From a virus (taxonomy: Duplodnaviria; Caudoviricetes): a DNA stretch of 64,000 nt. Made by a program: the position numbers and the translations under genes. Position 1 is the stretch's first letter; every line of letters starts with the position of its first letter. Location: positions 64,001 through 128,000 of the IMG/VR virus record IMGVR_UViG_3300029288_000079; one strand, 5' to 3'. The notes beneath the pieces were generated by a model. It worked only from the letters and a program-made list of their open reading frames with translations, made no database searches and had not been told where the DNA came from. This document shows positions 42,877 through 63,616 of this stretch, piece by piece.

Positions 42877-45249
42877 TTACATCTGATTATCTAAAAATTC
42901 TTTTTCGTCTTCTTTTAAATCTCCAATAAATATATGTTCATATTCATAAGGACCTTTACCTATAGCTTTTTCTACATATAAAACAGCTCCTATTAAACTA
43001 TCAAACCCCATACCTCTATCTAATGACCCATCACCAAGCATCTCATTTGCTTTTTGTAATAATGCCTCTATAGATTCATATCCTGTTAATGATTTTGTAG
43101 GATATGCACCCTTTCCTCCACCCCATAAATATCCCAATACAAGTCCTTCTGCATTATATTCTACTTTAGGTATATCCCATGATTGTTTAAACTGTACAAT
43201 TTTAAAATCACCAATAGTATAAACCCAAGCTTCATCTAATATGTAAACTATTGAATCAGAATTATTCATGTAATCATGCCACATTTCACCAGGTAATATT
43301 TTAGCTGTAACAACACCCTTCACACATGTAGTTGAATTTACATTATTGTCTGAATTATACATCCCACGTCTTAAATGTGGATGCATATTAGTATTTATAA
43401 CTTTTACGGGACCAACATAGGCTTCTATAGTATCTCCTACTTCAGGTCCTTCAGGAGATATATCCCAACTTAATTTATTACTTGAATTTTCTTTTATAAT
43501 AGCTTCAATTAATTCTACAGCTTTATATGTAATTCCACTTATGTTCCATTCATTAATGTCTTCTAATGCAATACCACTCTCACCTAAATAACCCTTTCCA
43601 ATTTCCCAATCATGAATACAAGCTACGACAGTAATAAATTCATCTTCTGGATCTTCAATATGAACTTCCCATTCTACTGTCTCTTCCATATAAGGTTCCC
43701 AAGTAGGCCTACCAAATATTCTAAGCATTGTATTATAATCGCATACTATTCCCCCTACTTTATGCATACCACTAGGATTACTAATTTCATCCGGAGCTAC
43801 TGTTTTAAATTTTATCTTATCTTTTGGCAAATCCCAACTAAATTTTAAACTGGATTCTGCAGATAAATATTGTAACATTTTATTAATCTTATTTACTTTT
43901 TCAGTATTTCCCTCAGCTTTAGCTTTATTTAGGTCATCTAAATATTCATCTATTAATTCTTTACGATTTTGTTCTACATTTTCTTTAGAAAGATTACTAT
44001 CAAATTTTAAATCATTAGAATTAAGATTTGATTCTTCTTTAGGGGCATCTGTATTTTTTAATACATTTTTAAATGGATTATTCTTCTTTAAAATTCCAGA
44101 TTTCTCTACTTTTTTTGCTTCATAAATAATATTTTCAATCCCTTTCCAATAAACAGAATTAGTTTCTGGAAGGCCTACAAATTTTACTTTTTCTATTAAT
44201 TTAGAGGGATCAGGATCCCAGCAGTATCCCAAATTACCTCCCATAGGTCCTATTTTTTCACCATTACAGTATGCTTTATAACAATCCATAGCTTTTTCTA
44301 TAGATCCATTACCCCAAACAATATCAAAATCATTATACTTGGGATTTATTTTTGTAAGAGAGAATTCAAACCCTACAATTGGTAAACAAACTCCATACCC
44401 ATTTTTTTTAAAATTTCCAATACCTTTAACTAGCCATCCTGCATAACTAAGATGACTCTCATCACTAGGTTTAAAATTCTTAAAATCATAATCCCCAAAC
44501 ATATTCAATATGTCATTATTATCCCAAGCCTTCTTTTTAAATAATTCAGATATCACCATTTCATTAGTCTTAATTATTAAGGGATCATCATCCAAACTTA
44601 TTTCTCTGAATTCGTCATCTGAAGATAATTTTTCTCCATTTTCATATATTAAAGTTAATGGCCAAGACTCGTCTGAAAACCCACAACCACTCCAGATCCA
44701 ATTGTTAAATCTGCAATCAATAATATCTCTCCATTTAGCATCACCATATATTACTTCTGGACCAAATGAAAACATCATACCTATGTGCAAATAAATATTA
44801 TCAGCATCTATTTTACTAGATTTCCAAACTTGATAAGGTTTACATAAAGATTTAAAATCCTCAAAATTAGAAGCTATAACTTGCATAGATATATCCCAAG
44901 ATTTCTTCTCATCCTCAATAATACCTACATATTCCAAAAGATTAAAATCCTTAGGACTAAATAAACATCTTGTAAGTTGACCACCATCTATAATCTTTCT
45001 ATTAGCTTTAGGATTTAGTTTTAACCATTCAAATTTTTCTTTAGCCATATCAGGACTATCTGACCACATAGACCAAACTCGAACATCACCATTTTCAGAT
45101 GTTACTAAAGATATAACTCCATACTTATAACCCATACCCGTCCTAACAGTTGTATCATCTACCAACCATCCTATATAGCTATCAGGATCATAATCAACAG
45201 GTAACGCTGGTCCTATATCCCAACTCAATATGTTATTTTGCACTTGCAT
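42877..45249 (-). CDS. SWDI-linked modular polyprotein (790 aa)
   Basis: ILSWDI, KKSWDI, KKAWDN, KFSWDL, KLSWDI, KQSWDI delimit separate modules. Confidence 0.75.
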   Translation of the reverse strand: MQVQNNILSWDIGPALPVDYDPDSYIGWLVDDTTVRTGMGYKYGVISLVTSENGDVRVWSMWSDSPDMAKEKFEWLKLNPKANRKIIDGGQLTRCLFSPKDFNLLEYVGIIEDEKKSWDISMQVIASNFEDFKSLCKPYQVWKSSKIDADNIYLHIGMMFSFGPEVIYGDAKWRDIIDCRFNNWIWSGCGFSDESWPLTLIYENGEKLSSDDEFREISLDDDPLIIKTNEMVISELFKKKAWDNNDILNMFGDYDFKNFKPSDESHLSYAGWLVKGIGNFKKNGYGVCLPIVGFEFSLTKINPKYNDFDIVWGNGSIEKAMDCYKAYCNGEKIGPMGGNLGYCWDPDPSKLIEKVKFVGLPETNSVYWKGIENIIYEAKKVEKSGILKKNNPFKNVLKNTDAPKEESNLNSNDLKFDSNLSKENVEQNRKELIDEYLDDLNKAKAEGNTEKVNKINKMLQYLSAESSLKFSWDLPKDKIKFKTVAPDEISNPSGMHKVGGIVCDYNTMLRIFGRPTWEPYMEETVEWEVHIEDPEDEFITVVACIHDWEIGKGYLGESGIALEDINEWNISGITYKAVELIEAIIKENSSNKLSWDISPEGPEVGDTIEAYVGPVKVINTNMHPHLRRGMYNSDNNVNSTTCVKGVVTAKILPGEMWHDYMNNSDSIVYILDEAWVYTIGDFKIVQFKQSWDIPKVEYNAEGLVLGYLWGGGKGAYPTKSLTGYESIEALLQKANEMLGDGSLDRGMGFDSLIGAVLYVEKAIGKGPYEYEHIFIGDLKEDEKEFLDNQM

Positions 45250-46186
45250 ATAGCTCTAACTTCGTCTGCCAAACACCTTGAGGAATTAATTCACGCCATT
45301 CATGACCCTGCTTAGCAATCTTCTGAAATTCAATCTCATCATTACCTTTCATTATTCGAATACCTGCATGAGTAACACATTCCCTACCCTCTAGTCTATA
45401 ATCACCTTTTTGATCTATTAACCAAGTAGTAGGTTCAATGGAAGTTGTAGTGCTAAGAGCTGGCTGAGGTTGATTTTTTTGATTATACTCTTTTTCATGA
45501 TTAAACTCACCAAAAGCCCAATCTTCAAATACTAAAGGTTCCTCATTACTAAGATGTTCTCTATCCATATATGTATGATATTCCTGTAAGAATTCTTGAT
45601 CTTTTGATTTTGCAGCAAGCCATGTTTTGAATTCCGGATTACTCTCATAAAAAGCCTTACGTTCAGAAGCACTTTTTTCAGAAATTTTCTTTTCAGGTTC
45701 TGTAGGTTCTATAGGCTGAACTTCAGGAGATATAGGAGCAGACACCTGACCTTGCTGGACACCTTGCTGGACACCTTGTCCAGGTAAAGGTGTAGTAATA
45801 TCTATCTGTAAAGATCCATCAGGCTTTGTCTTTACACTTGTATCAGCTTTTTTAGTTAAAAAAGTATATCTCCAATCAGGAATATTTGATGCTTTCTGAA
45901 AGAATCTACTAGCTGATCTACTACGTAAGCTTTCAAAGCGTTCCCGCCTTGTCTTCCCATCCATTAGGGGTGAGTTCTTATCCACAGAAATCTCCTTTTT
46001 AGAGTCAGACCTTTGCAATCCATTACCTTCTTTCCAGGCTGACTGTTCTTTATTTACAGGATTTCCAGAGCTAGGAAACTTGTCTCCTGTAAATGTTGCA
46101 TTATTTGGGATCTGTTTTCCATCAGGTATTTTATATACCCCAGGTTTTTGATCTTCCTTAGTTGAGAATATTTTTCTCCAGTTCAT
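45233..46186 (-). CDS. Head-associated protein sharing a motif with the scaffold
   Basis: FTGDKFP..NP...AW..G.G motif also in 39033..40862; N-terminal NWRKIF. Confidence 0.6.
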   Translation of the reverse strand: MNWRKIFSTKEDQKPGVYKIPDGKQIPNNATFTGDKFPSSGNPVNKEQSAWKEGNGLQRSDSKKEISVDKNSPLMDGKTRRERFESLRSRSASRFFQKASNIPDWRYTFLTKKADTSVKTKPDGSLQIDITTPLPGQGVQQGVQQGQVSAPISPEVQPIEPTEPEKKISEKSASERKAFYESNPEFKTWLAAKSKDQEFLQEYHTYMDREHLSNEEPLVFEDWAFGEFNHEKEYNQKNQPQPALSTTTSIEPTTWLIDQKGDYRLEGRECVTHAGIRIMKGNDEIEFQKIAKQGHEWRELIPQGVWQTKLELYASAK

Positions 46187-46201
46187 TTTGAATCTCCTTA
46201 T

Positions 46202-48196
46202 TTATATTTTAATTATTGCTTCTTTTGCCTTACTTACAGGTATTGATATTACTTTCGGAGTAGCATTTGTGTAATTCACATCTTTATGTATAATTGATAT
46301 TACAATCTCTCCATCCTCCCAAACCTTAGGCCAACCAGGATGCTTTTCATAATCAGTTCTAATTATTTCTAATATTCTTTTATCACTATTATAAAAATCT
46401 TTGTTGCCTACATTATCACAATACCAACTGAATACTATCCAACTTTTTATTTTAACCTTATCTCCCACCTCAAATTCATCTATTTCTGGTATATCCCATG
46501 AATTAATTAAAGGTGAATCCTTTACAAATATTAAAGGAAAATCAGTCTCTCCAAAATTGTATATACCTTTAACATTCCAACTAATAGGATATGTTATTTT
46601 TGGTTCATCATAAAACCACATAATAGAATAAATAAAAACTGTATTGAAATTCGATATCTCATATCTATATGCATTACCTAGTATAAAATAAAAATATTTA
46701 GCCTTTATACTATCAAAAGTTTTCCATACCTGTCTTGGGCCAGCTATACTTATAAAATCTTCTATTGTATCTGCTTGATAACCTGAATTTAATATAGGTT
46801 TAATATCCCATTCTTCAGAAAATCTCAAACTACTAGTAGTTTCTTGTGTATATTCCCATATATCTTCTTGAGCTTTAGCTAGTAAACTATCAAAATCAAT
46901 ATTCTTATTAGTTCGTTTAGCAGCTTGTCTTGCATATTTTATAGCATTAGCAGCAAAAAAAGCAGCAGCATTATCAGAAAAAAAAGCAGCAGCATTATCA
47001 GCATAATAAGCAGTAGCATAAGCAGCATAATAAGCAGTAGCATTAGCAGCATAAGCAGCAGTAGCAGCATAACCAGCAGCAGCATTAGCAGCAGAATAAG
47101 CAGAATAAACTTTATCTCTATTTTCTTTACTAGGATTCTTAAAACAAGTTTTTGCTGCTTCTATACATTTTCTAACTCTATCATCATTAGGATATTGCTC
47201 TTCATAAATACTTAATACAGCTTCTGCACAGTATATAGCATAAAGTAAATTTACTTTTTTAGGATCTACTTCTATAGGTTTAATGTCCCAGGATATCAAG
47301 TCCTTTTGAAAAATATCCTGCACCTGCCATTTATCGGGTGGACCGATACCACCAAATATCCACACTACAGCTTCTTTATTAAGAATATTGTTTTGTAATA
47401 ATTCAAATATGCAATCCACAAATTGTTGATTGTCTTGTATATCTTGAATAGCTACTTCATTTTTATTATGACTAACTCTTCCCAACATACTAACATGGTA
47501 TACCTCGGGACCTATACTTTCTCTAAGATCTGAATGAGTTTGTTTTGAGTCTCCTATTATAAGCTTACCATTATTATATAAAAAAGGTCGTCCTGCGCCA
47601 GTCTCAACATCGAATCCAGAATAGCTTGAAACTTTTCTATGTCTTTTATATCTATCTTTCACTTGTATATTAGGATCATATCCATCATGGTCTACTAAAC
47701 CTCTTCTTACATAATCCTCATCACAATCAGTATGATAAAATACTGTATCTATTTTTTCACCATTTAGATATACATCCCAAGTACCTGAATGCTCAGGTTT
47801 CTTAGGCTCTATATCCCATGATCTCTTTTTGGGACCACTAAAATTTAAATAATCTTTCGCAGATTCTATTATATCTTTTGAAACATTATCTATACTTCCT
47901 ATATGTGTACCTAAATAAATTGCCTTAGAAAAGGTTTTATTTTGTTCTGAAATATTTTTATTAGCATAAGTAGAGCTAAATCCTTTCCAGTTACCATTAT
48001 AACCACAATAAATGTAATCTCCTAATAATTTATTATCAATATGTTTAAAATTTCCTAATATATATAAATTATTTGCTACATTTTCATATAAGTAAACATC
48101 ATCATCTTTTATAGAATTTACAAACTCTTCAAAAGAGTCTATCCATGATATATCAGGAATATCCCAACTTAAAGATTTAATTTCTATAGGTTCCAT
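46202..48196 (-). CDS. SWDI-linked modular polyprotein (664 aa)
   Basis: SLSWDI, KRSWDI, LISWDI, EEWDI, INSWDI linkers; includes an Imm5-like module. Confidence 0.75.
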   Translation of the reverse strand: MEPIEIKSLSWDIPDISWIDSFEEFVNSIKDDDVYLYENVANNLYILGNFKHIDNKLLGDYIYCGYNGNWKGFSSTYANKNISEQNKTFSKAIYLGTHIGSIDNVSKDIIESAKDYLNFSGPKKRSWDIEPKKPEHSGTWDVYLNGEKIDTVFYHTDCDEDYVRRGLVDHDGYDPNIQVKDRYKRHRKVSSYSGFDVETGAGRPFLYNNGKLIIGDSKQTHSDLRESIGPEVYHVSMLGRVSHNKNEVAIQDIQDNQQFVDCIFELLQNNILNKEAVVWIFGGIGPPDKWQVQDIFQKDLISWDIKPIEVDPKKVNLLYAIYCAEAVLSIYEEQYPNDDRVRKCIEAAKTCFKNPSKENRDKVYSAYSAANAAAGYAATAAYAANATAYYAAYATAYYADNAAAFFSDNAAAFFAANAIKYARQAAKRTNKNIDFDSLLAKAQEDIWEYTQETTSSLRFSEEWDIKPILNSGYQADTIEDFISIAGPRQVWKTFDSIKAKYFYFILGNAYRYEISNFNTVFIYSIMWFYDEPKITYPISWNVKGIYNFGETDFPLIFVKDSPLINSWDIPEIDEFEVGDKVKIKSWIVFSWYCDNVGNKDFYNSDKRILEIIRTDYEKHPGWPKVWEDGEIVISIIHKDVNYTNATPKVISIPVSKAKEAIIKI
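46808..47293. repeat. 486-bp module duplication, copy A
   Basis: Appears identical to 62660..63145 (offset 15852). Confidence 0.9.
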
Positions 48197-48230
48197 ACAG
48201 TATATTTAGCCAATTTCTATATAAAAACAA

Positions 48231-48458
48231 CTATTTGTCTATATCTTCTCTAGTCACATGGAGCCACTTCGCTACTATATCAAAACTATCTATGCCAATA
48301 TCAAATCCATCTTTACAATAGTCATATTCTGCACCAGGTTCATACTTTAGAAAGAACTCATCCTTGTGGACACAGATACAATTATCACATTGAAACCAAC
48401 CATCAGGCACATATATCCACGTGGCCATTTTACCACAACTACAGAGTTCTTTTTCCAT
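48231..48458 (-). CDS. Small Cys-rich protein
   Basis: CSCGK.A.W...CDNC. Confidence 0.6.
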   Translation of the reverse strand: MEKELCSCGKMATWIYVPDGWFQCDNCICVHKDEFFLKYEPGAEYDYCKDGFDIGIDSFDIVAKWLHVTREDIDK

Positions 48459-48478
48459 TTAACTAACTTTATCCATTT

Positions 48479-48855: not shown

Positions 48856-48862
48856 ATATCAC

Positions 48863-50212
48863 CTATATATTAGCTGAGAAATGCCCCGAGTAACCTTTTT
48901 CTTTTGACCACAAGTAACCTTCTGCAGCTCTAGTACTCTTTACATAACCTTTCTTAAAATGCCAAGAGTCAGTACCTGAAAGACTTGGTAGAGTCCTTAC
49001 TGTTACAGATCCATAACTATCATCCATACCGTAAGCCATTCTTTTCCTAGTATGCGTATGTCCAATATGCCACTCCTTACTTATACAATCCGCCCATGCT
49101 TCTGAAGCCTCATCAGCCATTAATGTAGGTAACATGCTATGTTTCTCATCATCTCCATGAGTAAATCCTATAAGACATCTCCCGTAATGAACATACTTTC
49201 TTGGAGAGGGAGATACATCTACGATAACATTATTTACACCCTTATACCAAGCCGCTAACTCTCTTACTAGGTGATATGAAGATGTTCGATCATGATTTCC
49301 TGGAACCCATAGAATATCTACTGGTGCAATAGCTCTTAAATAATCAATAGCATTTACACAAGCCAAAACTCCTTTAGCAAATATTTTAGGATACCTAGAA
49401 TCAACGTCTTGAGGTGTGTCATTTACAGTAGTATTTCGTGCATTGTCTATATGAAAGAAGTCTTGACCCACAGGAAATAGAATCTTTTCTATAGGAAATC
49501 CCTTTGTCTTAGAACAAAGCTCTACTACAGCATCATGATATATTTTTTCAGCTATTTTCATATCGTAGTCAGTACCTGTTTCTTTTCCCCAAGCAAGCTT
49601 TCCAAAGTGAAGATCAAATATACTAATCTCCAGTAGATGTTTATCCTTTACAGGTTTAGGTGTCTGAATTTTAGTATACTTAGGAAAATGTTTCTTTGCT
49701 TCTTTAAGTAATTCATCCAAACCATCAGACACTTTTTTGTCCACTTTTCTTCTAAGCCATACTTTAACTTGCCACAAAGGTTGGGTGAGCCATTCATTCT
49801 TTCTTATAGAATGTCCATCCATAATACCTTTATCCCATTTCAAATTTTGATCTCTATATTTTGCTCCCACCTCCCATTTATTTATAACATATCTATCTAC
49901 TTCCCAAATACCCGTATCTACGTTACCCGCCTTCAGTGCATCTTCCAAAGTTTTTATAGAGTGAGATACTGAAACTAAAGATTTCTGATTATCATTACCC
50001 TCTTCTGTAAAATTCTCTTGTGGCTTCTCAATAATACTCCGTAATTTTTCTGCAAAAGGTTTCTTCAATCTCCTCGCCCTGTGATCTCCACATTTAAACC
50101 TTCCCATCAACTCATCAATTGTTACAGTCGGGTCTTTTTCAATAAATTCTATTATTTCTTTATCCGATGCTGTTTTCACATTTGATTTAGATTCCATCTC
50201 TATACCTTCCAT
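48863..50212 (-). CDS. Metallophosphoesterase / Mre11-SbcD-like nuclease with N-terminal HTH-like extension
   Basis: DLHFG, GQDFFH.D, PGNHD, THGD, GHTH motifs. Confidence 0.85.
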   Translation of the reverse strand: MEGIEMESKSNVKTASDKEIIEFIEKDPTVTIDELMGRFKCGDHRARRLKKPFAEKLRSIIEKPQENFTEEGNDNQKSLVSVSHSIKTLEDALKAGNVDTGIWEVDRYVINKWEVGAKYRDQNLKWDKGIMDGHSIRKNEWLTQPLWQVKVWLRRKVDKKVSDGLDELLKEAKKHFPKYTKIQTPKPVKDKHLLEISIFDLHFGKLAWGKETGTDYDMKIAEKIYHDAVVELCSKTKGFPIEKILFPVGQDFFHIDNARNTTVNDTPQDVDSRYPKIFAKGVLACVNAIDYLRAIAPVDILWVPGNHDRTSSYHLVRELAAWYKGVNNVIVDVSPSPRKYVHYGRCLIGFTHGDDEKHSMLPTLMADEASEAWADCISKEWHIGHTHTRKRMAYGMDDSYGSVTVRTLPSLSGTDSWHFKKGYVKSTRAAEGYLWSKEKGYSGHFSANI

Positions 50213-50264
50213 TTAGTTTTAGTTAGAAACGGATCCATTCGCTCCTCCGTTTCAGTTCATATAC

Positions 50265-50568: not shown

Positions 50569-50895
50569 CTATACACTATCTATTAACCAAGAATAGTCAA
50601 ATGAATCAATAAAACTAATATCCATATCAAATCCAAGTAATCTAATTTTAATATGAGGTTGACCAAGTTTAACAGGATCTAAAATGACCACATCCAAATC
50701 TGAATCATTTCTGTAATCCCCAAAAATTCTACTACCAAATAATTTAATATCAGAAACATCATACCCAAATTTTCTAGATATATTATTCTTTATATCTAAA
50801 ATAGACCTCCCATTTAACCCAAGATGTTCAAAATCTTTAGAAACTTTAAATATTTGTCTCCACCTAACCATAGTATACCCTATTGTAAAGAACAA
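50569..50895 (-). CDS. Minimal pol-beta-type nucleotidyltransferase (start probably MVRWRQIF at 50871)
   Basis: LFGSR..G.....SDLDV motif plus distal D. Confidence 0.85.
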   Translation of the reverse strand: MFFTIGYTMVRWRQIFKVSKDFEHLGLNGRSILDIKNNISRKFGYDVSDIKLFGSRIFGDYRNDSDLDVVILDPVKLGQPHIKIRLLGFDMDISFIDSFDYSWLIDSV

Positions 50896-52316
50896 GCACT
50901 ACTAATATCACCATCTTTAATCAACATATCATACATATCCAAAACATTGTCTCGACCTAACTCTTTATAAAGTCTACGCAGATATTCGTCCCTGCCCTCA
51001 TCTTGTTGACGAGCATATTTCTCCAGTACTATAGCATCCTTAAATGCAGGAGAGGCCACAACAGATAGTTCAAAGAATGATAATTCATGATTAATTTCTA
51101 AATTTCTAGCTATAACATATCTGCTACTTGTACCGTTTAGTACTTCTTGTATATCTCGCTGACTAGACAAAATATGGGGTAGCCATTCCGGACGTAAATG
51201 TTCACTATCAAGAAGATCTCTTATTTGATTTGCAGATACACTTGTAAGCCTACCCTTGTTGCCCTGCTTCATATGAGTACAATAATCTGAACTATAACGA
51301 GCTTTTGTATTACAAACTGAGCAAGTAGAATAGTTTACATTACAATTATGGACAATAATACCTCCCGCAACATAACTATGATCATGCTCTACTTCGAAAT
51401 TATATACATTACCATCATAATCAATTTCTTCTATATTGTCAACATAAAATCTGATAAGACTCATAGTACTATCAAACCCCATTACCTTATTATCTATAGC
51501 AAGGTCCCCAGCCTCTATCCAATATACTTCTTCAATTTTATAGTCATAATCAGTAGCCACTGGATGCTCTAAGGTAATAATTATTGGTTTATCACTACTT
51601 GGAGTTATAATTTTTAAAGCCTTACCTTTATATTGTCGAATCATTGTTTCAGTTACCTTTTGTATTGCTCCTGTATGGGATATGACTGAATCTCCCACCG
51701 ATACAGATTCTATTGGCATAGAAGACTTATCGGCCATAGTTACCAAAGCTCCTGGAGCAAAACATCCCATTGAACATGTTAAATTTTGTCCAGTGTCAAT
51801 CATACGAACAATACGTTCTAGTAACTCCTTGGTCTTCCTATCATGACTAGCAGACTTAACTAATTGGGTATCAATTCTCATTAATACTTCTATGTCCCCA
51901 AGAGTTTGGTCTTTAGCTTCTAATATATTTTTACGAAGTACATCTTGCTTTCTAGATAGCAATGATGCCCATTTCTTTTCTTTAACTTCCTCTGGATAAT
52001 TAAATCTATTCAGAAAAGCATCCGGAAGATCACCAATAGAACCACGAAGACCAAGTTTTGAATTATGTTCCGCGTGACTTTTTTTACCAATAAAACTTTT
52101 ATACCCATACCCAGGACGTTCATCTTCAAAATATTCATAAGGAAACGCATCAGCATTTCCGTTGGCCCCTGACTTTTCGAAATTTCCAATGGCTCTAAAA
52201 CGAAGATATCTGAATTCGTTTGTGTCTAATGGTAAAATTCTTTTCTCGTACTTAGCTGCTTGCCTAGATGTCAAAGGCTGAGGTTTAATAATTTGATTAC
52301 ATACTTTAACTAACAT
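50880..52316 (-). CDS. Prohead maturation protease containing an intein
   Basis: NGNADAF, H.EH, SMG|C..CSVC..C.H, FFELSVV..PA motifs; AGGTGA SD before ATG 52316. Confidence 0.8.
   Translation of the reverse strand: MLVKVCNQIIKPQPLTSRQAAKYEKRILPLDTNEFRYLRFRAIGNFEKSGANGNADAFPYEYFEDERPGYGYKSFIGKKSHAEHNSKLGLRGSIGDLPDAFLNRFNYPEEVKEKKWASLLSRKQDVLRKNILEAKDQTLGDIEVLMRIDTQLVKSASHDRKTKELLERIVRMIDTGQNLTCSMGCFAPGALVTMADKSSMPIESVSVGDSVISHTGAIQKVTETMIRQYKGKALKIITPSSDKPIIITLEHPVATDYDYKIEEVYWIEAGDLAIDNKVMGFDSTMSLIRFYVDNIEEIDYDGNVYNFEVEHDHSYVAGGIIVHNCNVNYSTCSVCNTKARYSSDYCTHMKQGNKGRLTSVSANQIRDLLDSEHLRPEWLPHILSSQRDIQEVLNGTSSRYVIARNLEINHELSFFELSVVASPAFKDAIVLEKYARQQDEGRDEYLRRLYKELGRDNVLDMYDMLIKDGDISSACSLQ
51345..51764 (-). 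mobile_element. Mini-intein (140 aa, no endonuclease)
   Basis: C1 CFAPGA, block B TLEHP, block F VYNFEV, terminal VHN followed by +1 Cys. Confidence 0.92.
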
Positions 52317-54057: not shown

Positions 54058-56032
54058 TTATCTTCCTAAGTAATGCAATATTCTCAATTTTCTTTGCATC
54101 TAACAAACTCTTGTTTTCAAATGAAAGAGTAACATCATCTCGAGTAACATCTCCAATTACTTCTCGATGTAATTGATCCATTTGACTTGCCATTCCTGCT
54201 GGAGGAGTTTGACCTCCTGCAGATTCCGGAGGACCACCCATACCTATTGGAGCTGGTCCTAGACCATCAGCCCCACCTTCCGGACCACCTGGAGCTTCAC
54301 CCTCTGGACCACCTACACTAATATCTCCTATACCCCCAAAATCAATAGGACCACCTCCACCCCCCGCACCACCCTTTTTATTATCCTGCATAAATGGTAA
54401 CAATCCTGATTTAGATATAGTTATTAACCGCTGTTGCTTACGTCTCAAATCCTCAATATAGGCTTTTTCTTGAGTATCACGATCAAGTCTGCCAAGTCTA
54501 GCTAATGTAGCATCATCAACTAAATGTGGCCTTTTATCTACCAACCATTTTATAAAATTCTTTAAATTTTCATCTGTAGAAGCTGATAAAGATCCCCAAT
54601 CTAATTTAGGATATACATATTCACGCACTTGACGTTGTTGCTGTTGCTGAACTTCATCAGCCTTCACCTTTAAGTAACTTTTAAATTCTTTATTATCTTG
54701 AATATCACGCAGAGTAGTAAATTGTTGCCCAATCTTTTGCATAATGTCATTACCACTACCATATTTGGAAGATCTAACTCCACCATACCCTGCAACAGCA
54801 TTTTTTACACGATAGAATCCACAAAGATCAGCCGTTGTTTTAAACACACCTGAGTGAACAAAGTTTTCAATCTTTAATTGATAGTTAAGGTAACGCTGTC
54901 TTTGTACTTCCATATTTATGTACGCTTGACTGTATGACCCACCTTGACCTGCAAGTAATTGTTCATGAACTCCGAGTCCAATAAATTTCAATCGATATAT
55001 GCGATCAAGCTCGGGTCCAACAGGAAGCATTTTACCATTACTACCCACGTGTTCCACATTTATTCCATAATGGTAGAAGATTGAAAAATTGGGATCCAAT
55101 TCAAATGCAGCAAACATATTACGAACTTCCTCAAGCTCTGCATTGTCTGGCATATACCCAGAAGTTGGATCTCCGATTTTAACAAGCATCATTGGAACTG
55201 CATGGCGTGTGGCTAATGCAAAATTAGCTTGATTGAATCTATCCTCCAACATTAAGGTTTTAAGAATACGTTTAATTATACTCTTACCCTGCTGTTCATA
55301 AGGTCGTTTCGCATGAGCTATATGAAATACGTTGTTTGGGTCCAGTGGAATCTCTTGATTAAATAATACATATCTTACAATCTCGGGAGGCAGTTGATCA
55401 TATATGAATCTAGGAGTCTTTGTTTGTACTATTTTCCTCAATGTCTCATCAGGAATTAATTTGATCAATGGACGTTGATTAACCCATGTTGATTCTATCT
55501 TAACATAGTCAGGATTCAATATTGCAAATTGATCCCACATGTAATCCGCATTGTTCCACGCACCAAAGGCATAAACATTTCCTATTTCAAAATATTCTTG
55601 TGAGATATCTGTCAACATTTTAAAACCATTTATTCTCTCCCACATATCTGTAAAATGCTGCTGTATACCTGAATCCTCGCATTGCCCTAACCGTAAATCT
55701 GATAGAGGCATTTCCGCAAGCATCTTAACGGCAGCACCTACAATAGGATCAGTCTCTCCAAAGAAACGATACAGGCCATGCAAAGTTCTACTATCTGGCG
55801 GAATAGCCAATGTAGAACTAGAATAGCGAGGATCGTTGAACATTGGAGCTATACGTGTTATATCAGACGAAGCCTTAGCTCGAATCTGTGCTACCTTATC
55901 CAATGACAGATTACTACGTTGTGGTAATATTGAAGGGGTTTGAACTAATGTTGCCTCTATTCTTGCAGCCTCAATATTACTATTCGAGATATCTGTTATA
56001 ATGTGTTTGCCACCTGGTTGTAGTTTGTACAT
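54044..56032 (-). CDS. Portal protein
   Basis: YRFF..DP.V, LNPDYV, FH.A...YE..G.S.I.R, P..LVK.G; Gly/Pro-rich C-terminal tail. Confidence 0.88.
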   Translation of the reverse strand: MYKLQPGGKHIITDISNSNIEAARIEATLVQTPSILPQRSNLSLDKVAQIRAKASSDITRIAPMFNDPRYSSSTLAIPPDSRTLHGLYRFFGETDPIVGAAVKMLAEMPLSDLRLGQCEDSGIQQHFTDMWERINGFKMLTDISQEYFEIGNVYAFGAWNNADYMWDQFAILNPDYVKIESTWVNQRPLIKLIPDETLRKIVQTKTPRFIYDQLPPEIVRYVLFNQEIPLDPNNVFHIAHAKRPYEQQGKSIIKRILKTLMLEDRFNQANFALATRHAVPMMLVKIGDPTSGYMPDNAELEEVRNMFAAFELDPNFSIFYHYGINVEHVGSNGKMLPVGPELDRIYRLKFIGLGVHEQLLAGQGGSYSQAYINMEVQRQRYLNYQLKIENFVHSGVFKTTADLCGFYRVKNAVAGYGGVRSSKYGSGNDIMQKIGQQFTTLRDIQDNKEFKSYLKVKADEVQQQQQRQVREYVYPKLDWGSLSASTDENLKNFIKWLVDKRPHLVDDATLARLGRLDRDTQEKAYIEDLRRKQQRLITISKSGLLPFMQDNKKGGAGGGGGPIDFGGIGDISVGGPEGEAPGGPEGGADGLGPAPIGMGGPPESAGGQTPPAGMASQMDQLHREVIGDVTRDDVTLSFENKSLLDAKKIENIALLRKINGEG

Positions 56033-56050: not shown

Positions 56051-59000
56051 TCAAATTAATTCCATGTCTGTATAAAATATAAACCAACTATCCTTTAAAT
56101 GCGTATATGTATCCAATATTACATACCAATAATAAGGGTTTCCACATTGTTTTAATAATGTTCCTTCCGATCCTTTAGCCAAATTAACTTCAGAAATTCC
56201 TATAAAATTAAATACATCATTTTTTAGTCTAACCCTATCTCCAGCTATAAACTCATTTTCTATTATAGGTATATCCCAAGATTGTTTTTGTTCAGAATAT
56301 TGATCCACTATCTCTATATCTTTACTTAACATATATACAGAACCCTCCTCACTTATAAATACATTATATATAGGTTCCTCCAGATATTTTTTAGTTAAGC
56401 CTGCTGGACAAACTCCTTTAGCATCTCTATTTGCTTCCTCAGAATTTTTAAAAATTAAATATATATAACCTATTTTACCAATAATTGATTTTACAAAGTT
56501 AGGGTCTAAATTACCAATAGATTTAGATAATATTTTTACCTTATCCCCAACTTTGGGATCTATATCTGGTATATCCCAAGATAATCTTGGTAAAGCATTA
56601 TCATGCCTTTCCATACAATGAATAGCTAAATGTTGGAGTTCTTGTGTAGGTATACCCTCAGTCTTTTTAGATTCTTTTTTGGGTACTATAGTATCAAAGA
56701 GGTTATATTGAGAAAGGTCGATATTTTGTTCATAATTATCCTCATTAATATCCGATTCAATATAGATATTTCTTATATTATTGTCAATAGCTATCTCACT
56801 TGCACTTATATCACATGCTTCCGGAGCTATATGATCCGGTGTCTCCATATCAATATCAGGTTCTTCAGCTTCAGATTCTGGTATCAAGTTTAATTGAGTC
56901 TCCGGTTCTACAGGATCTACCCGTCTCTGCCTACGCTGTCTAGGCTGTAATTGCTCATAATTTCCTATTGGAATTCCATCCCACCCAATTTCTATTCTAT
57001 AATTAGCATCAAATTTATAAGGGTGCTCAAAATCATAATTTAGAGTATAAAGCATTTCACCCCTTTTACTAAATACACTCCCAGGAACATTAAATTTGTT
57101 TAGCCAGAAATTAATTCTAGATTTTGTTGTAGGTGTATTATAATTTCCATTATCTACTATAATTCTATCCCCATAAAATACTACAACATCAGTAGACCAG
57201 TATCTTATAGCTATACCATCTCCAAATACCCTATGCATTATGGTTTTATGGCCCACTACTCTTTCTGACTTATTCTTAAACCTTCCATTATTAGTTAATA
57301 TATTTTCAATATCTTGCATCTGCCATGCAGGAGTATTAGAAATATCCCATGCTAAAGTATTAATATTATCATCAACTTTAACTAAGGTCATAGGCATGTT
57401 AGATTCCCAAACTACAGCATAAGCTGTTTTAGGATATTTAATTTTATAGACAGGTCTTATATTACTAAAATATTTAGAATCAGCTAGATTTACAGCCCTA
57501 CTTTCTAAATTATCTTCATTATTATTAAAATCATAAATACCAAAATTTTCATAGTTTGGCCCTATATGTAAATAATTATCCCCAAGATGAGTATCATCTT
57601 TCCATACTTGCCCTGGTGCAGCTACTTCTAAGAACTCTTCTAGTGTATTTACAATATGTCCCTCTTGTAAAAATGGTATATCCCAACTATGCATATATCT
57701 TGTTTTATTTGCATTTTCTACTTGAACAAGTTCCATAGGATATGCTTCATCCATTACATAACATCTATCAGATATAGCTACAGATTTCCAATGTCGATCT
57801 TCATTACTTCCAAACCATTGACTAGATCTGATAGATAAAGCTTTACCAGCTTTAATAGCACTGATCTCACTACTATCTTCTGTAACAATAAAAATATTAG
57901 GATTGCTCTTAATATATAAGAATGATCCTAAAGTCTTACTTCTCCAGACCTGCCCGGCTCTTGCATTTTCTCTAAACTCTTTTTGACTATTTGCAATATC
58001 ACCTAATTCAGGATCTATAGATATATTCCAAGCCAATACATCTGTAGCAATTTTACCCTCTGTATCAAAATCATAATCATTAGACTCAATTAATTCTATA
58101 ATAGCTTCTTTAGATGTTAAATATTCATATTCATGTCTCAGCATAGTTAGATAATCGTCACAAAGAGCTTTTTTAAACTCATCCTCAAGATCTTCTATTG
58201 ACCCATCAATCTCATATTCATTGTCCTCTGTTCTTTCACTCTCCAATAATCTTAAACTTTCTTTAAATCTCAGTGCAGTTTTATATGTATCACAAGTATT
58301 ACCATGATCACGCATTATATCTGCAATGCATTCCGACATACTTTGAGTAAGTTCTCCTGAACAATAACTACCCCTATCAATATCGAATCCTGTTATTTTT
58401 AGTCCAATATTTGCAGCATCGTCATATGTACACTCCCACCAATCATAATCTACATTTTTATCATAAAGGTTTTCAATAGCTTTTTCCTGTATATCTTCAG
58501 GTAATTCATTATATTTATATGTAGTATCTTTATCATCGGGATCAAATATAGGAGATATATCCCATGAAAGATTTAAATTATTTCTAAATCTTAAACTACT
58601 AGTAGTTTCTTGTGTATATTCCCATATATCATTTTCTGCTTTAGCTAGTAAACTATCAAAATCAATATTTTTATTAACCTGTTCAGCAGCTCTTTTAGCA
58701 TATTTTATAGCATAAGCAGCATCAATAGCAGCATCAATAGCAGCATCAATAGCAGCATCAATAGCATAAGCAGCAGCATTAGCAACATAATAAGCAGCAG
58801 CATTAGCAACATAAGCAGCAGCATCAATAGCAGCATCATAAGCAGCATCAGCAGCAGCAGTAGCAGCATAACCAGCAGAATAAGCTTTATTTCTATTTTC
58901 TTTACTAGGATTCTTAAGACAAGCTTTTGCTGCCTCTATTGCTGCTCTAGGTCTGCTATCATTAGGATATTTAGATTCAAATATAGGTAGTACAGCTTCT

Positions 59001-62000
59001 GCACAGTAAATAGCATAAAGTAAATTTACTTTTTTAGGATCTACTTCTATAGGTTTAATATCCCAGGAGAGGTTTTCATTTATTAATTTAATATCATTTA
59101 TATTAACAGCCCACCCTAGACGAGAAGTACCTGGATGACTTATTGATAAAAGAGAGAAATTATCCCAATCAACACTAACATACCCATCACCTCTTAATTC
59201 TGTTATAGTACCTTTACTACCCTTCCGTATAGGTTCCACATTATTAACATAATAGGCTTCATCATCACGTATGAATTCTATTCTATCCCCTATTTCGAAT
59301 TCTCCAGGAATTCTAGGTAAGTCCCAGCTTAAACTAGATCCATAAGGCATCAAAGGACGCATATCGTTTACTTTATCAAGAGTTCTATGCAAGCCACGTT
59401 CAAACCACATATCAGAATCATCTTTATCAAGCTTTCTAGCTGCAGGATCCTGCTGTTGTTTCTGATCCGTCGGTCCTCTACGAACCACCTCTTCAGGTTG
59501 TGGATCTAACACACTATCATATTCATCTGAAGCTTTAACCTCAAATGGAAATACACCTACAAATCTTATAGGTTTTAAAGTAGTAATATTAGTAAAACTT
59601 AATTTTCCACCATCAATAATCACCTTAGCTAATTCAGGCTTTGCTAAAAGTTCATTAAAAAATGCTTCAGCATCTTCTTCACTAAATCCAACATACCGAT
59701 ATGCATAATTAATTTTTACAGCTACAACTACTCCATAAGTATTGTAGAGATTAGCGTATGTCATCCACCCTAAGAAACTCTCAGGATTTGATATATCAGG
59801 TTTTGCGGGAGATATATCCCATGACATTTTCTCTGGATCTTTAAATTTATTCAAAAGATTAATTATCACTCTATCATGATCATCTAAATAATCTTTTTTA
59901 GTTATGTAAGATGCCTCCCTATCTGAAAGTGCCAAATTAGAAATTCTAGCTACATCAGCATTTGATGGACTATCATCTATATCTTGATGAATTAGCGTAG
60001 ATGGAAAATACTTTATATCATTTTCTCCGGGCAACCAATCCTTTGGAGTAGTTATATCTAAGTGATCTTCTTGTCTAAAGAATAAAGCCTGCTGATCAAA
60101 CTGATCTTTAGACATATCTATATCTGATTTATCTGTATAAGATTCCGGAGTTGAAACTTTTATAGATGCTTCTCTTATATCTCCATCCTGCAAAGAATCT
60201 TCATTCTTTCTACGATCTAACTCTTGTTCAATCCATTCCCTTAACTTCAGATCAAATACACTAAAACATTGCTCCGCATCCTCTATAATGCTATTCAATG
60301 ACTTTAGTTCTTTTTCAAGGTTCTCTGTAGGTCCTTTTAGTAATTTTACAACCCAATTCTCCTCAGGCTTGGGATCTGAAATATCCCATGCCAACTTACT
60401 AATCTTTTCCTTTACCTTACCTGAATTTAATGATACTTTATACATCTCATCATCCGAGAACTTACAACATATTTCTTTTGCTGACCAACTAAAAGGTTTG
60501 AGATCCTTAAGATTAGCTTTACCATTACCCTCGTATTTTAATGTAACATGGGGTAAGTATCCAAACTTGCGATCAAATTCATCAATTACTGATTCAACGG
60601 CTTCTAAACATTTCTGATAAACCTCGGCACCATCAATGCAATTAACCAATGCAGCAACTGTGTTATCTCCATTATCAAATGTACCTAAACCTGTAAATTT
60701 ACATTTTATCTTCTTATATTGTTTCGCTACTGATTGGATAGCCTTAACAATCTTTTTCTTTTCATTAGGCGTGAGTTTCTTATCCTTCACGCATATCAAT
60801 GTCATATGTAAGTCTTGATCAAGATTACTTATATGATTGAATCTTTTTCTAACAGACTTAGGAAGATCTAAATAAATGAATATCTCATCCTTGAATTCAT
60901 TTTTCTTAGATGCTGTGTTATCTATAGAAGGTATAAATTCTAAATCCTGAGCAATATAAAAAGACCAAGCAACATTATTACGTACTCCAGTTTTGTATTC
61001 TACTGTGTAGTAATGTTGTCCCAAATATTTCTCACCTTGATTCTCATAAAAAGTAGAACTGTTAATAGTATCTTCTGATATCCCCACAATTCTACCAGTA
61101 AGACCTATACCCATAGTAGCAAATTTGGGTCTTGCATACACACTTTTTGATAGTATCTTTACTTTGTCCCCAACTTTAAACTCTGGAGTGTATGATATAT
61201 CCCAAGATAAAGTTTCAAGTATTCCTATATATCGAATAGGTTTAAGCCATGTTAAATAACATTCAAATGTTTCAATATTTTTAGATAGTCTAGCCTCAGT
61301 TCTATTTACTCCTATAGTAGCAGCTACCTCATACCAATTACTAAAACCCATGCCCTGTCCTATTAATTTGATGCCCTGAATTACACAATACTGATTATCA
61401 AAATCTCTTTTACATAACCATCCTATAAAATCTTCGGGAGAACTATTATATGTAGGTACCTCAGGATCCATAGATATATTCCAAGATAAATGTGAGCCTA
61501 TTTTTTCTATGTATCTCTGCCAATAACTCAAGGGTATATCAAAATGAATTTCATTACCATCTTTATTATAGCCTTCAATAATGACCTTACCCCTCCCCCA
61601 GTTAGGTATGTCTTTAGGAAGTTCCCAAACATCACAACCTTCATCAACATAATTATATTTAAAATTAATTTCTACAACCTCAAATTCATTTTTATCAAAA
61701 TCATCAAAGTATTCATTATCAATATCAATTTCAGACGATGATTGAGGTATAAGACTTACCTTATCCCCAACTTTTAATTCTATATCAGGTATATCCCAAG
61801 CCAAAGCTGATCTATAATCTTCCAACATACTATGTAGATGTAATGGAAAATCATATTTTTCATCAACGATAGTAGTTCCAAAATCTTGCTCTATATCCAC
61901 ATCAGATTTATTTTCAGGTTTCATCCATACCGCATTCTTCAAAATAAGCTTATTATCATTTTTTCTCTCATACTCAATAGGATGATTTGGAGATAATACC

Positions 62001-63616
62001 AATGCAAATCCTGACCGACTATACCATATCTGACTTGGTTGTGCTTCTTTTATAAATTTCTCTACAGCAGCTTCATTAGCAGCAGTAGACTCAAAAGATA
62101 ATTTATCATTCACAACTTCTAAAAAATCTTCCCATTTATTGTATGGAAATGTATTTGTAGCTCCATGAAAATGAACATATACTCTTCCTGTGTATAATCC
62201 TCCACAATCATACTCATATTCATGATCAGGCAAAATTTCAATAACTTTTCCTACAGATCCCTGAAAATAAGAATCTACATCAATATTATCTAAATAATTT
62301 CTATCAGCTATGACTCGAACAATATCCCCTTCTTTTATGTTAGTAATAATATCCCAAGACTTCTTATTATTATTAGAATCTATGAGTGTAACCCACCTAT
62401 CATAATCTGGAAGAGGTATGATAAAAGATATCATATCACCCTCTACGTCTTTACCTTCTATACGCATGGCTCCTGCATGTCCTTCGGAAGAAAACCATGA
62501 ACTACTTTTTTTCACAATTGTAACTACAAAATCATTTTTGTCAAAGAGATTACTAAACGTAACAGGATCTGAATATGCTGGATCCTTAATAATCTCATGT
62601 AAATTTTCAGGTATTATGGAAAAGTGGTCCCCAATTTTAGGTACATACAGTTTAATGTTCCATTCTTCAGAAAATCTCAAACTACTAGTAGTTTCTTGTG
62701 TATATTCCCATATATCTTCTTGAGCTTTAGCTAGTAAACTATCAAAATCAATATTCTTATTAGTTCGTTTAGCAGCTTGTCTTGCATATTTTATAGCATT
62801 AGCAGCAAAAAAAGCAGCAGCATTATCAGAAAAAAAAGCAGCAGCATTATCAGCATAATAAGCAGTAGCATAAGCAGCATAATAAGCAGTAGCATTAGCA
62901 GCATAAGCAGCAGTAGCAGCATAACCAGCAGCAGCATTAGCAGCAGAATAAGCAGAATAAACTTTATCTCTATTTTCTTTACTAGGATTCTTAAAACAAG
63001 TTTTTGCTGCTTCTATACATTTTCTAACTCTATCATCATTAGGATATTGCTCTTCATAAATACTTAATACAGCTTCTGCACAGTATATAGCATAAAGTAA
63101 ATTTACTTTTTTAGGATCTACTTCTATAGGTTTAATGTCCCAGGAGAGAGTATTTGAATCTCCTTCAAGATTTATAATATCTGCTTTTATAACAGCCCAA
63201 TGTTTATTTGCATCACCGAAAGCATCTTCACATGTGGGCTGATTATCCCAATCTACAAATACAAAATCCTGGCCCTTCATTAAATCCATAACCACACCCG
63301 TAGAACCATATGAGACTTCACAACTATAATCAATGGTCCCCCAATAAGAATTTCGATCTTTCTTAATCCATTTAACTCTATCACCTATTTCAAACTGGCC
63401 CGGCTTTCTAATCGTAACTATGTCCCATGCACTTACAGGAGTTCCATATTCCTTAACTTTAAATAATTCCTTATCTTCTCTATCCAAATCTGGAAGAGCT
63501 AGATCTGTATTCCAAGGTTCTTGAAAATCTAAGGAATTATATCCAGGGGCAGGAGACTCCTTTTCAAAAGGATCACCTATACTTTTCAATCTATCTATGA
63601 TAACATCTTTTGCCAT
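56051..63616 (-). CDS. Giant SWDI-linked modular polyprotein (2521 aa) with a 2H phosphoesterase, two Imm5-like and many SH3/KOW-like modules
   Basis: 16 [SA]W[DN][IL] linkers plus EEWNI; HMT and HVT 2H motifs. Confidence 0.8.
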   Translation of the reverse strand: MAKDVIIDRLKSIGDPFEKESPAPGYNSLDFQEPWNTDLALPDLDREDKELFKVKEYGTPVSAWDIVTIRKPGQFEIGDRVKWIKKDRNSYWGTIDYSCEVSYGSTGVVMDLMKGQDFVFVDWDNQPTCEDAFGDANKHWAVIKADIINLEGDSNTLSWDIKPIEVDPKKVNLLYAIYCAEAVLSIYEEQYPNDDRVRKCIEAAKTCFKNPSKENRDKVYSAYSAANAAAGYAATAAYAANATAYYAAYATAYYADNAAAFFSDNAAAFFAANAIKYARQAAKRTNKNIDFDSLLAKAQEDIWEYTQETTSSLRFSEEWNIKLYVPKIGDHFSIIPENLHEIIKDPAYSDPVTFSNLFDKNDFVVTIVKKSSSWFSSEGHAGAMRIEGKDVEGDMISFIIPLPDYDRWVTLIDSNNNKKSWDIITNIKEGDIVRVIADRNYLDNIDVDSYFQGSVGKVIEILPDHEYEYDCGGLYTGRVYVHFHGATNTFPYNKWEDFLEVVNDKLSFESTAANEAAVEKFIKEAQPSQIWYSRSGFALVLSPNHPIEYERKNDNKLILKNAVWMKPENKSDVDIEQDFGTTIVDEKYDFPLHLHSMLEDYRSALAWDIPDIELKVGDKVSLIPQSSSEIDIDNEYFDDFDKNEFEVVEINFKYNYVDEGCDVWELPKDIPNWGRGKVIIEGYNKDGNEIHFDIPLSYWQRYIEKIGSHLSWNISMDPEVPTYNSSPEDFIGWLCKRDFDNQYCVIQGIKLIGQGMGFSNWYEVAATIGVNRTEARLSKNIETFECYLTWLKPIRYIGILETLSWDISYTPEFKVGDKVKILSKSVYARPKFATMGIGLTGRIVGISEDTINSSTFYENQGEKYLGQHYYTVEYKTGVRNNVAWSFYIAQDLEFIPSIDNTASKKNEFKDEIFIYLDLPKSVRKRFNHISNLDQDLHMTLICVKDKKLTPNEKKKIVKAIQSVAKQYKKIKCKFTGLGTFDNGDNTVAALVNCIDGAEVYQKCLEAVESVIDEFDRKFGYLPHVTLKYEGNGKANLKDLKPFSWSAKEICCKFSDDEMYKVSLNSGKVKEKISKLAWDISDPKPEENWVVKLLKGPTENLEKELKSLNSIIEDAEQCFSVFDLKLREWIEQELDRRKNEDSLQDGDIREASIKVSTPESYTDKSDIDMSKDQFDQQALFFRQEDHLDITTPKDWLPGENDIKYFPSTLIHQDIDDSPSNADVARISNLALSDREASYITKKDYLDDHDRVIINLLNKFKDPEKMSWDISPAKPDISNPESFLGWMTYANLYNTYGVVVAVKINYAYRYVGFSEEDAEAFFNELLAKPELAKVIIDGGKLSFTNITTLKPIRFVGVFPFEVKASDEYDSVLDPQPEEVVRRGPTDQKQQQDPAARKLDKDDSDMWFERGLHRTLDKVNDMRPLMPYGSSLSWDLPRIPGEFEIGDRIEFIRDDEAYYVNNVEPIRKGSKGTITELRGDGYVSVDWDNFSLLSISHPGTSRLGWAVNINDIKLINENLSWDIKPIEVDPKKVNLLYAIYCAEAVLPIFESKYPNDSRPRAAIEAAKACLKNPSKENRNKAYSAGYAATAAADAAYDAAIDAAAYVANAAAYYVANAAAYAIDAAIDAAIDAAIDAAYAIKYAKRAAEQVNKNIDFDSLLAKAENDIWEYTQETTSSLRFRNNLNLSWDISPIFDPDDKDTTYKYNELPEDIQEKAIENLYDKNVDYDWWECTYDDAANIGLKITGFDIDRGSYCSGELTQSMSECIADIMRDHGNTCDTYKTALRFKESLRLLESERTEDNEYEIDGSIEDLEDEFKKALCDDYLTMLRHEYEYLTSKEAIIELIESNDYDFDTEGKIATDVLAWNISIDPELGDIANSQKEFRENARAGQVWRSKTLGSFLYIKSNPNIFIVTEDSSEISAIKAGKALSIRSSQWFGSNEDRHWKSVAISDRCYVMDEAYPMELVQVENANKTRYMHSWDIPFLQEGHIVNTLEEFLEVAAPGQVWKDDTHLGDNYLHIGPNYENFGIYDFNNNEDNLESRAVNLADSKYFSNIRPVYKIKYPKTAYAVVWESNMPMTLVKVDDNINTLAWDISNTPAWQMQDIENILTNNGRFKNKSERVVGHKTIMHRVFGDGIAIRYWSTDVVVFYGDRIIVDNGNYNTPTTKSRINFWLNKFNVPGSVFSKRGEMLYTLNYDFEHPYKFDANYRIEIGWDGIPIGNYEQLQPRQRRQRRVDPVEPETQLNLIPESEAEEPDIDMETPDHIAPEACDISASEIAIDNNIRNIYIESDINEDNYEQNIDLSQYNLFDTIVPKKESKKTEGIPTQELQHLAIHCMERHDNALPRLSWDIPDIDPKVGDKVKILSKSIGNLDPNFVKSIIGKIGYIYLIFKNSEEANRDAKGVCPAGLTKKYLEEPIYNVFISEEGSVYMLSKDIEIVDQYSEQKQSWDIPIIENEFIAGDRVRLKNDVFNFIGISEVNLAKGSEGTLLKQCGNPYYWYVILDTYTHLKDSWFIFYTDMELI
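62660..63145. repeat. 486-bp module duplication, copy B
   Basis: Appears identical to 46808..47293; a diverged third copy lies at ~58590..59070. Confidence 0.9.

Follow-up and report, generated by a model that had tools for sequence, protein, structure and literature searches.

The DNA studied here is a 64,000-nucleotide stretch (hereafter the window) of a virus of the Caudoviricetes, bases 64,001-128,000 of one 181,733-bp contig (IMG/VR record IMGVR_UViG_3300029288_000079), and our subject is a group of large genes in its head region whose products are chains of small domains joined by copies of a short peptide, [S/A]-W-[D/N]-[I/L/V]. The minus strand carries almost all genes and the G+C content is about 32%. 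Four of these genes lie entirely within the window, all on the minus strand, and encode polyproteins A (56051..63616, 2521 amino acids), C (52306..54057, 583 amino acids), F (46202..48196, 664 amino acids) and H (42877..45249, 790 amino acids). Together with their relatives past the right edge of the window they flank the portal gene (54044..56032, minus strand), the gene for a putative prohead protease, D (50880..52316, minus strand), the gene for a charged, scaffold-like protein of 609 amino acids, J (39033..40862, minus strand), and the large terminase gene. The portal protein is 30% identical to phage G gp14 and has no copy of the strict linker motif. A preliminary description of this DNA, made from its letters alone, had placed the linker-bearing genes around portal, protease and scaffold genes; the portal and the intein-split protease are where it put them, and for the scaffold J is the better candidate, since the 449-amino-acid gene after the protease that had been given this role resembles a phosphoesterase.

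Ten genes share one linker motif

A six-frame scan of the window for [SA]W[DN][ILV] finds 28 copies in A, C, F and H (16, 2, 5 and 5, respectively) and none in its other real open reading frames (ORFs), the three remaining matches falling in frames that stay open for 5-23 codons only. This agrees with the preliminary description, which had named these four ORFs as linker-punctuated, and the looser variants that it listed are all present: EEWNI at residue 319 of A, EEWDI at residue 463 of F, KKAWDN at residue 241 of H and ILSFD at residue 8 of C. Its count for F, four linkers plus EEWDI, needs a small correction, as we find five strict copies (one of which reads SWNV) and an additional TWDV. 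Its estimate of the system as four genes with about 30 modules fell short by about half. Across the whole genome there are 48 copies of [S/A/G]-W-[D/N]-[I/L/V], spread over ten genes of the minus strand (106.8 to 163.4 kb), namely H, F, C and A in the window and K, M, N, Q, R and S past its right edge. K (1548 amino acids; one linker, pentapeptide repeats and an Imm5-like module) spans that edge, with its C-terminal end at 63619..64000 of the window (minus strand) and its 5' part and start beyond it (L001:619-5265).

Among all ORFs of at least 60 amino acids in the genome, only one copy lies outside the ten carriers. In 2000 shuffles of the ten proteins the motif appeared on average 1.1 times and at most five times, against the 48 copies observed, and 48 of the 191 tryptophans in these proteins fall inside it. 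The consensus is x-[K/T]-L-[S38/A8/G2]-W48-[D43/N5]-[I41/L5/V2]-[P/S/K]-x-[I/L]-E (figures are numbers of copies), with a proline no more than three residues after the motif in 35 of the 48 copies. Successive copies are 25-1055 residues apart, mostly 85-270, and cutting the ten proteins at the motif yields 58 segments, most of them likewise 85-270 residues long.

The linker separates autonomous modules

The segments between linkers behave as independent protein domains. A has 16 linkers and 17 segments, among them two that are Imm5-like, one with a 2H phosphoesterase (residues 804-1075) and SH3-like ones, and the first module of C is GNAT-like. The Pfam families matched in the polyproteins are Imm5_like, 2_5_RNA_ligase2, GNAT, S-adenosylmethionine (SAM) methyltransferase, pentapeptide and LPD28, and their borders track the motif. 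For instance, the Imm5_like match starts six residues past the motif in all five Imm5-like modules, and in S, outside the window, residues 30-90 match PF18843 (LPD28; E 4.2e-12, score 46 vs a cut-off of 27) and occupy the interval between motifs at residues 6 and 105. When compared with 1.8 billion representative proteins, the first 1200 residues of A match hundreds of stand-alone proteins of 120-250 amino acids, each corresponding to a single module; these include proteins of about 180 amino acids that match the Imm5-like module at A 158-320 and proteins of about 170 amino acids that match the 2H phosphoesterase at A 903-1080. Parts of A are matched by several PHROG families of small proteins as well. 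In all, the motif precedes at least six unrelated families, comprising the Imm5-like helical modules, LPD28, the SH3-like modules and at least three other small paralog families. The earlier view that the linker sits at module borders, and that the modules are either unrelated or members of paralogous families, is thus borne out.

The motif is also found where there is little to separate. In Q, S, H, F and R the first copy stands at residue 5, 6, 9, 10 and 12, respectively, behind a leader that ends in Leu or Gln, in keeping with the position near N-termini that had been reported. A sister phage, an IMG/VR contig with a portal protein 81% identical to that described here, has two such genes with the motif at residues 11 and 18, and across these seven short-leader genes the leaders are 4-17 residues long, with Leu at position -1 in six. 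At the other extreme, the motif precedes stubs of 8-27 residues at gene ends. Residues -6 to -2 before the motif are hydrophilic.

The surroundings of the linker were modelled with AlphaFold for one module of A, A15, with 25 flanking residues on each side and an alignment of 15 paralogous or orthologous modules. The model (mean predicted local distance difference test, pLDDT, 78) has a confident small barrel as its core, with strands in residues 39-116; Foldseek matches this core weakly to SH3-like barrels in PetP, in YorP and in nitrile hydratase beta (C-terminal domain). Of the two motif copies, the upstream one (residues 26-29) is predicted to lie in coil 10 residues before the first strand (pLDDT 66 for residues 21-30), and the downstream motif (residues 126-129) in coil after the last strand, within the least confident stretch of the model (pLDDT below 50 for residues 125-127).

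We considered the possibility that W-D-I is a buried strand of one repeated fold. An iterative hidden Markov model search did gather 33 modules as if they were a single small domain, a result driven by the motif itself: once the motif was stripped, the SH3 family held just 7 of the genome's modules, and the A15 model places the motif in coil. We therefore dropped this reading, which the preliminary description had named as one that would refute its own. A related proposal is that the motif is a structural cap or junction that was inherited with duplicated modules and carries no signal. Many modules are indeed paralogs with alignments that start at the motif, and about 18 of them begin with the longer common start SWDI-P-x-Φ-E-x-x-V-G-D (Φ, hydrophobic). 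Nevertheless we judge this quite improbable, for the motif stands before sequence-unrelated families (Imm5-like, LPD28, 2H-bearing, several SH3-like and others), is retained where its flanks have diverged to 20-35% identity, lies behind what look like throw-away leaders and before the terminal stubs, and is coil by DSSP in the A15 model. Nor do the sequences match three other kinds of signal that we considered and rejected: a sortase signal, an acid-labile Asp-Pro bond and a skipping peptide of the 2A type.

Imm5-like domains are very common in phages, and certain Ala-rich, G+C-rich elements (P0134, P0266, P0221 and P0210) encode proteins of 2400-3000 amino acids with up to about 12 of them in tandem. 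These proteins have junctions of their own, such as G-L-x-x-Q-R-x-M-D-I-V-R-E-V-G.

Modules are gained and lost at the linker in related phages

The syntenic genes of the sister phage keep the same motif, and their module content differs from that of the present genome exactly at motif borders. The sister counterpart of A has 2860 amino acids and 17 copies of the motif. In nine pairs, modules of the two phages align over their whole length, starting with the first residue of the motif (44-74% identity), while their neighbours are absent or replaced. The counterpart of C consists of a 17-residue leader and the last module alone, and that of H is without modules H1, H4 and H5 and stops eight residues past a motif. 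Only three proteins were returned when homologs of polyprotein R were sought; P0124, a partial R homolog from another sample, has one extra module between two motifs. Within the present genome, the Imm5-like module of F is 99% identical over 165 amino acids to A2. From these comparisons we conclude that modules move as whole units, and that gain and loss occur exactly at the motif.

Such a pattern might also be expected if the motif were a DNA-level recombination site for the exchange of cassettes, with the peptide as a by-product. We find this scarcely credible. Only the TGG of the tryptophan is fixed; the serine of the motif is encoded by TCN in 25 copies and AGY in 13, the leucine by five different codons, the third bases of Asp and Ile vary, and there is no common DNA word longer than about 6 bases. 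The use of both classes of serine codon implies selection on the peptide and not on the DNA, and the codon variation across the motif excludes a recombination signal at the level of DNA.

Phages that are nearer relatives than phage G, with proteases closer to D, have other linkers, of the type K-L-S-W or S-S-L-K-F-S. Genes syntenic with A, F and H carry Q-K-L-S-W in one relative (L007) and S-S-L-K-L-S-W in another (L011), there too near the N-termini, and in long multi-domain homologs of other origin the linker takes the form SSLKLSW, SLKL[DN]W, SLKF[SA]DIL or [SA]SIL[ED]. Relics of the long form survive in the phage described here, as SSLRFRNNLNL-SWDI in A and as ESSLKF-SWDL at residue 471 of H.

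An enrichment of SLRVQNN in three relatives (L020, L023 and L025) was rejected as a further linker type. It stems from one internally repetitive ORF of 679 amino acids (L020:11260-13296) with nine copies of S-V-L-K-S-L-R-V-Q-N-N-E-L-I-G-G, 30-75 residues apart, which is a repeat protein.

The protease, the scaffold-like protein and a family of sites

D probably starts at ATG 52316, the ORF being open from TTG 52376. It is interrupted by a mini-intein of about 140 amino acids (51345..51764, minus strand) with Cys at its start and His-Asn, then Cys, at its end, inserted directly after Ser-Met-Gly, two residues past the invariant serine of the D family. In an alignment of 36 intein-less homologs of about 336 amino acids, His83 and Ser181 (of the Ser-Met-Gly) are invariant, and a nearly invariant L-E-K-Φ-A ends the folded part of the protein. 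Many D homologs elsewhere have larger inteins at the same place, giving proteins of 730-780 amino acids.

Standard searches said little of D. It has no Pfam protease match (Peptidase_S77 included) and was pointed out just by an Atlas feature lead; a comparison of the family with T4 gp21 by hhalign gave a probability of 0.2%, a profile search of PDB sequences was empty, and Foldseek of the family model against the PDB found nothing significant. The family does match gp19 of phage G (hhalign probability 99.8%, E 1.8e-27), which a 2025 study lists among its annotations as a head maturation protease (PMC12484599). When the AlphaFold model of an intein-less D ortholog (pLDDT 82) was compared by VIA-align with 48,161 representative chains, T4 gp21 (5jbl_A) was ranked first (Z 9.1, root-mean-square deviation 2.9 Å, 130 of 165 residues aligned), followed by the proteases of varicella-zoster virus (Z 8.3), cytomegalovirus (HCMV; Z 5.8) and KSHV (Kaposi's sarcoma-associated herpesvirus; Z 5.7). 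We take D to be the prohead protease, of the gp21/assemblin fold. A complex prediction for the intein-less ortholog with a 40-residue linker segment scored 0.00, and weighs neither for nor against recognition.

The scaffold-like protein J is the richest in the genome in [KR]-Φ-[AS]-[SA], with seven sites where 0.5 would be expected (Poisson P 1.3e-6, among 180 ORFs), several of them at the same alignment columns in eight orthologs. Most D-family proteases have a J ortholog as their neighbour, and in three relatives the two are joined, protease first, in a single ORF; we read J as the scaffold. In phages with more distant D-family proteases (L020:2864-7075, and also L023 and L025) one ORF of about 1400 amino acids encodes both protease and J-like scaffold. 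One J site reads K-Y-A-S-Y-W-D-I, and six of the eight orthologs have K-[YF]-[AS]-S-Y-W-[DE] here.

The same site type is about threefold enriched in the head-region plus-strand ORFs of phage G (21 sites vs 6.5 expected) and of two further genomes, L038 (25 vs 9.6) and L051 (30 vs 8.4), where the sites lie among others in the ORFs with the protease match and in small ORFs just downstream. The portal and the protease gp19 of phage G both carry such sites, and L-E-K-V-A-S ends the protease domain in gp19 and its relatives. Taken together with the intermediate linkers of the relatives, on which the connection to the scaffold sites depends, SWDI looks like a lineage variant of one evolving family of sites with a basic-hydrophobic-small core.

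A model for cargo loading and processing

We think it somewhat better founded than not that the ten genes encode capsid-packaged polyvalent cargo polyproteins that are cut at their linkers by the prohead protease. Each polyprotein would string together small autonomous modules (Imm5-like, 2H phosphoesterase, GNAT, methyltransferase, LPD28, pentapeptide repeats, families of SH3-like barrels and many of no recognised kind) by means of an exposed peptide, and would enter the procapsid along with the scaffold. D, presumably a Ser/His enzyme, would first splice out its own intein and then cut the linkers. About fifty small proteins would thus be released, to leave the capsid together with the DNA and act as early effectors, and the N-terminal leaders (4-11 residues) would be trimmed off, in the manner of the propeptides of the T4 internal proteins. 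The idea that the linker is a protease site, a capsid-targeting tag or both was part of the preliminary description, and several independent if indirect lines now fit it; packaging, cleavage and injection are steps that we infer from them.

As to the scissile bond, the herpes assemblins cut at V/L-x-A↓S (arrow, scissile bond). If the assemblin rule, Φ-x-A↓S, and the scaffold sites of this clade, K-Φ-[A/S]↓[S/A], are taken as a guide, the likeliest cut would fall between the small residue and Trp. Alternatively, cleavage might follow the Asp, in a phiKZ-like register [S/A/G]-x-acid↓. On the primed side of the first of these cuts W-D-I may serve in addition as a loading tag, because it copies a conserved segment of the scaffold.

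Several observations weigh against cleavage by the prohead protease. The residues on the P side are weakly conserved, with Lys at -2 in 16 and Leu at -1 in 28 of the 48 cargo linkers, while W-D-I is nearly invariant; conservation weighted in this way is not usual in a protease site, and a binding or docking tag would account for it no less well. In five copies the Asp is an Asn. In the A15 model the residues directly after the motif are confidently ordered, so that the site may be only partly accessible. None of the scaffold, portal, capsid protein and protease has strict SWDI; all they carry is the looser K-Φ-[A/S]-[S/A]. The equivalence of K-V-A-S with K-L-S-W is drawn from the series of relatives. 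A peptidase-like gene within the polyprotein cluster, to which we return below, may encode a processing or trimming enzyme for the cargo. Finally, some polyvalent proteins, such as the virion RNA polymerase of N4, are packaged uncut (PMC5512222).

These points favour in part a different model, in which the motif serves for loading or docking and is not cleaved, its W-D-I and Pro-x-Φ-Glu binding scaffold, portal or inner capsid or guiding ejection, and the polyproteins remain intact in the virion. The resemblance to the scaffold segment K-[YF]-[AS]-S-Y-W-[DE] agrees with this too, as the linker may copy a scaffold contact. We regard this model as credible but doubtful. One tag per polyprotein would suffice for docking; instead there is one per module, and 16 in a single protein. 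The short leaders with their conserved Leu would be left unexplained, relatives exchange W-D-I for other sequences while keeping the K-Φ-small part, and an intact chain of 2521 amino acids with 17 independent domains would have to traverse the tail.

Alternatively, the linkers might be cut by another enzyme: a host protease after injection, the polyproteins themselves, or the product of the peptidase-like gene between K and M (L001:5281-6720, genome 132281-133720). This protein of 479 amino acids (PHROG 4191) has an MH-clan (M20/M28/M42-like) metallopeptidase-like C-terminal half with the motifs H-x-D, D-D-R-L-G and E-E-S-G, and weak DapE and M42 matches. Its place in the cluster and the lack of SWDI in the canonical substrates of prohead proteases both speak for such a role, and Iyer et al. 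have proposed that linked peptidases process polyvalent proteins, possibly after delivery (PMC5512222). We nonetheless hold cutting by another enzyme to be improbable. The DapE and M42 matches are far below curated cut-offs, phmmer with the 479-amino-acid protein against the PDB was empty, and there is no resemblance to phage G gp2. MH-clan enzymes, moreover, are mostly exopeptidases. Pfam and PHROG matching found no peptidase family, zincin-type included, in any of the ten polyproteins, and the linker series of the relatives grades into the site motif of scaffold and protease.

More tentatively, and as a possibility to which we would give a little less than even weight, we propose that this arrangement extends to a phage G-related clade of large uncultured phages. 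In this clade an assemblin-fold protease would have co-evolved with a lineage-specific linker code, K-Φ-A-S to K-L-S-W to L-S-W-D-I, that doubles as a loading tag by copying a segment of the scaffold; modules would be swapped between phages exactly at the linkers, and in the phage described here ten genes would supply about fifty injected proteins.

Comparison with known systems

The architecture belongs to a published class, the polyvalent proteins of Iyer, Burroughs, Anand, de Souza and Aravind (2017; PMC5512222), which like A and its companions are giant, combine many unrelated effector-type domains in one polypeptide, have their genes next to those for virion morphogenesis and are predicted to accompany the DNA on delivery; polyprotein S even has the family-specific LPD28. 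In contrast to the one repeated peptide found here at the junctions, no uniform inter-domain linker is described for that class, and processing by built-in, non-obligatory peptidases was proposed there (PMC5512222), whereas the candidate here is a separate prohead protease. Our literature searches found no account of magazine-like phage polyproteins with an invariant linker. The preliminary description knew of no published motif like it; as far as these searches go, the exact SWDI motif is indeed undescribed, while the architecture is not, and the motif itself looks like a lineage variant of a wider S-S-L-K-[L/F]-[S/A]-W/D linker family of related phages.

The gp21 protease of T4 follows the site rule L/I-x-E, to which small residue-Trp-Asp-Ile is unrelated. 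In other respects T4 resembles the scheme proposed here: its cargo enters by way of the scaffold core, is cleaved by a protease of the gp21 fold and is injected, and IPI-III and Alt begin, like several of our carriers, with a short leader followed by a protease motif. Its internal proteins have a capsid-targeting leader that is cleaved by gp21 (PMC9026906); they are products of separate genes with one site each, as compared to the up to 17 chained units found here.

In phiKZ, 201phi2-1 and SPN3US, head and ejection proteins are cut at S/A/G-x-E or A-x-E (PMC10052503, PMC5694885), with A-x-E sites and propeptides in SPN3US (PMC10052503). It is established, for these phages as for T4, that a gp21-fold protease processes proteins of the head interior at one motif. 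In these large phages a single short motif serves as the processing site of the portal, of the protease itself and of many head-internal proteins; its acidic residue has a small one two positions ahead of it, as in [S/A/G]-W-D. Unlike the system described here, processing there mostly removes propeptides from single proteins, and chains of exchangeable modules joined by an invariant linker have not been reported. The acidic position is Asp or Asn in our motif, and a cut between S and W and one after Asp both fit.

Herpesvirus assemblin has R and M sites and is made as a protease-scaffold fusion, pUL26 (PMC4498786). D is predicted to have the same fold; the scaffold and protease of its clade carry K-Φ-A-S sites, one of which ends the protease domain, and in some relatives protease and scaffold are, like pUL26, one ORF. 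Herpesviruses cut scaffold and protease only, not cargo polyproteins, and assemblin sites are not known to have Trp directly after the small residue.

If the linkers are cut, the phage spends about 28 kb, or 15% of its genome, on about fifty DNA-delivered proteins, far more pre-made cargo than T4 or phiKZ carries. In that case injected effectors could be predicted from metagenomes by a simple rule, in which the motif of the head protease is found and the modules are then read off. The 2H phosphoesterase, acetyltransferase, methyltransferase and Imm5-like modules are candidates for counter-defence, many other modules may represent unknown folds, and each, with its borders already defined, is ready to be tested. 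The linker series of the relatives amounts to a natural experiment on the co-evolution of a protease and its substrates, and a short, portable tag for the loading and release of capsid cargo would be of use in engineering.

Neighbouring genes, introns and inteins

Two residents of the head module seem out of place there. The first is E (48863..50212, minus strand), the 449-amino-acid protein after the protease, which is calcineurin-type phosphoesterase-like (PHROG 704) with GNHD and GHTH motifs; V-K-T-A-S at its residues 12-16 is not kept in the sister phage and is given no weight. The second, between D and F at 50569-50895, is a small gene with a nucleotidyltransferase fold (NTP_transf_2, E 9e-5). 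Each of the two might be a moron or part of the cargo.

A single gene of the region is on the plus strand, and it encodes an HNH endonuclease (41214-41924; PHROG 374, E 2e-43). It adjoins gene I (41992-42810, minus strand; 272 amino acids), whose product has a zinc ribbon at its end.

The major capsid gene is split (36004-38000): residues 61-277 of the phage G major capsid protein match at 36022-36681 and residues 31-58 at 37792-37875, and between the two parts lies an ORF of 320 amino acids of DNA-binding type (36702-37664). Group I intron matches at 37926-38000 (E 4.5e-6, the search range ending there) and at 36735-36902 (E 0.022) suggest that a group I intron, or two of them, lies within or next to this gene. 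A LAGLIDADG intein lies in the large terminase (L002:2497-5667), which makes it the second morphogenesis gene, besides D, to carry an intein.

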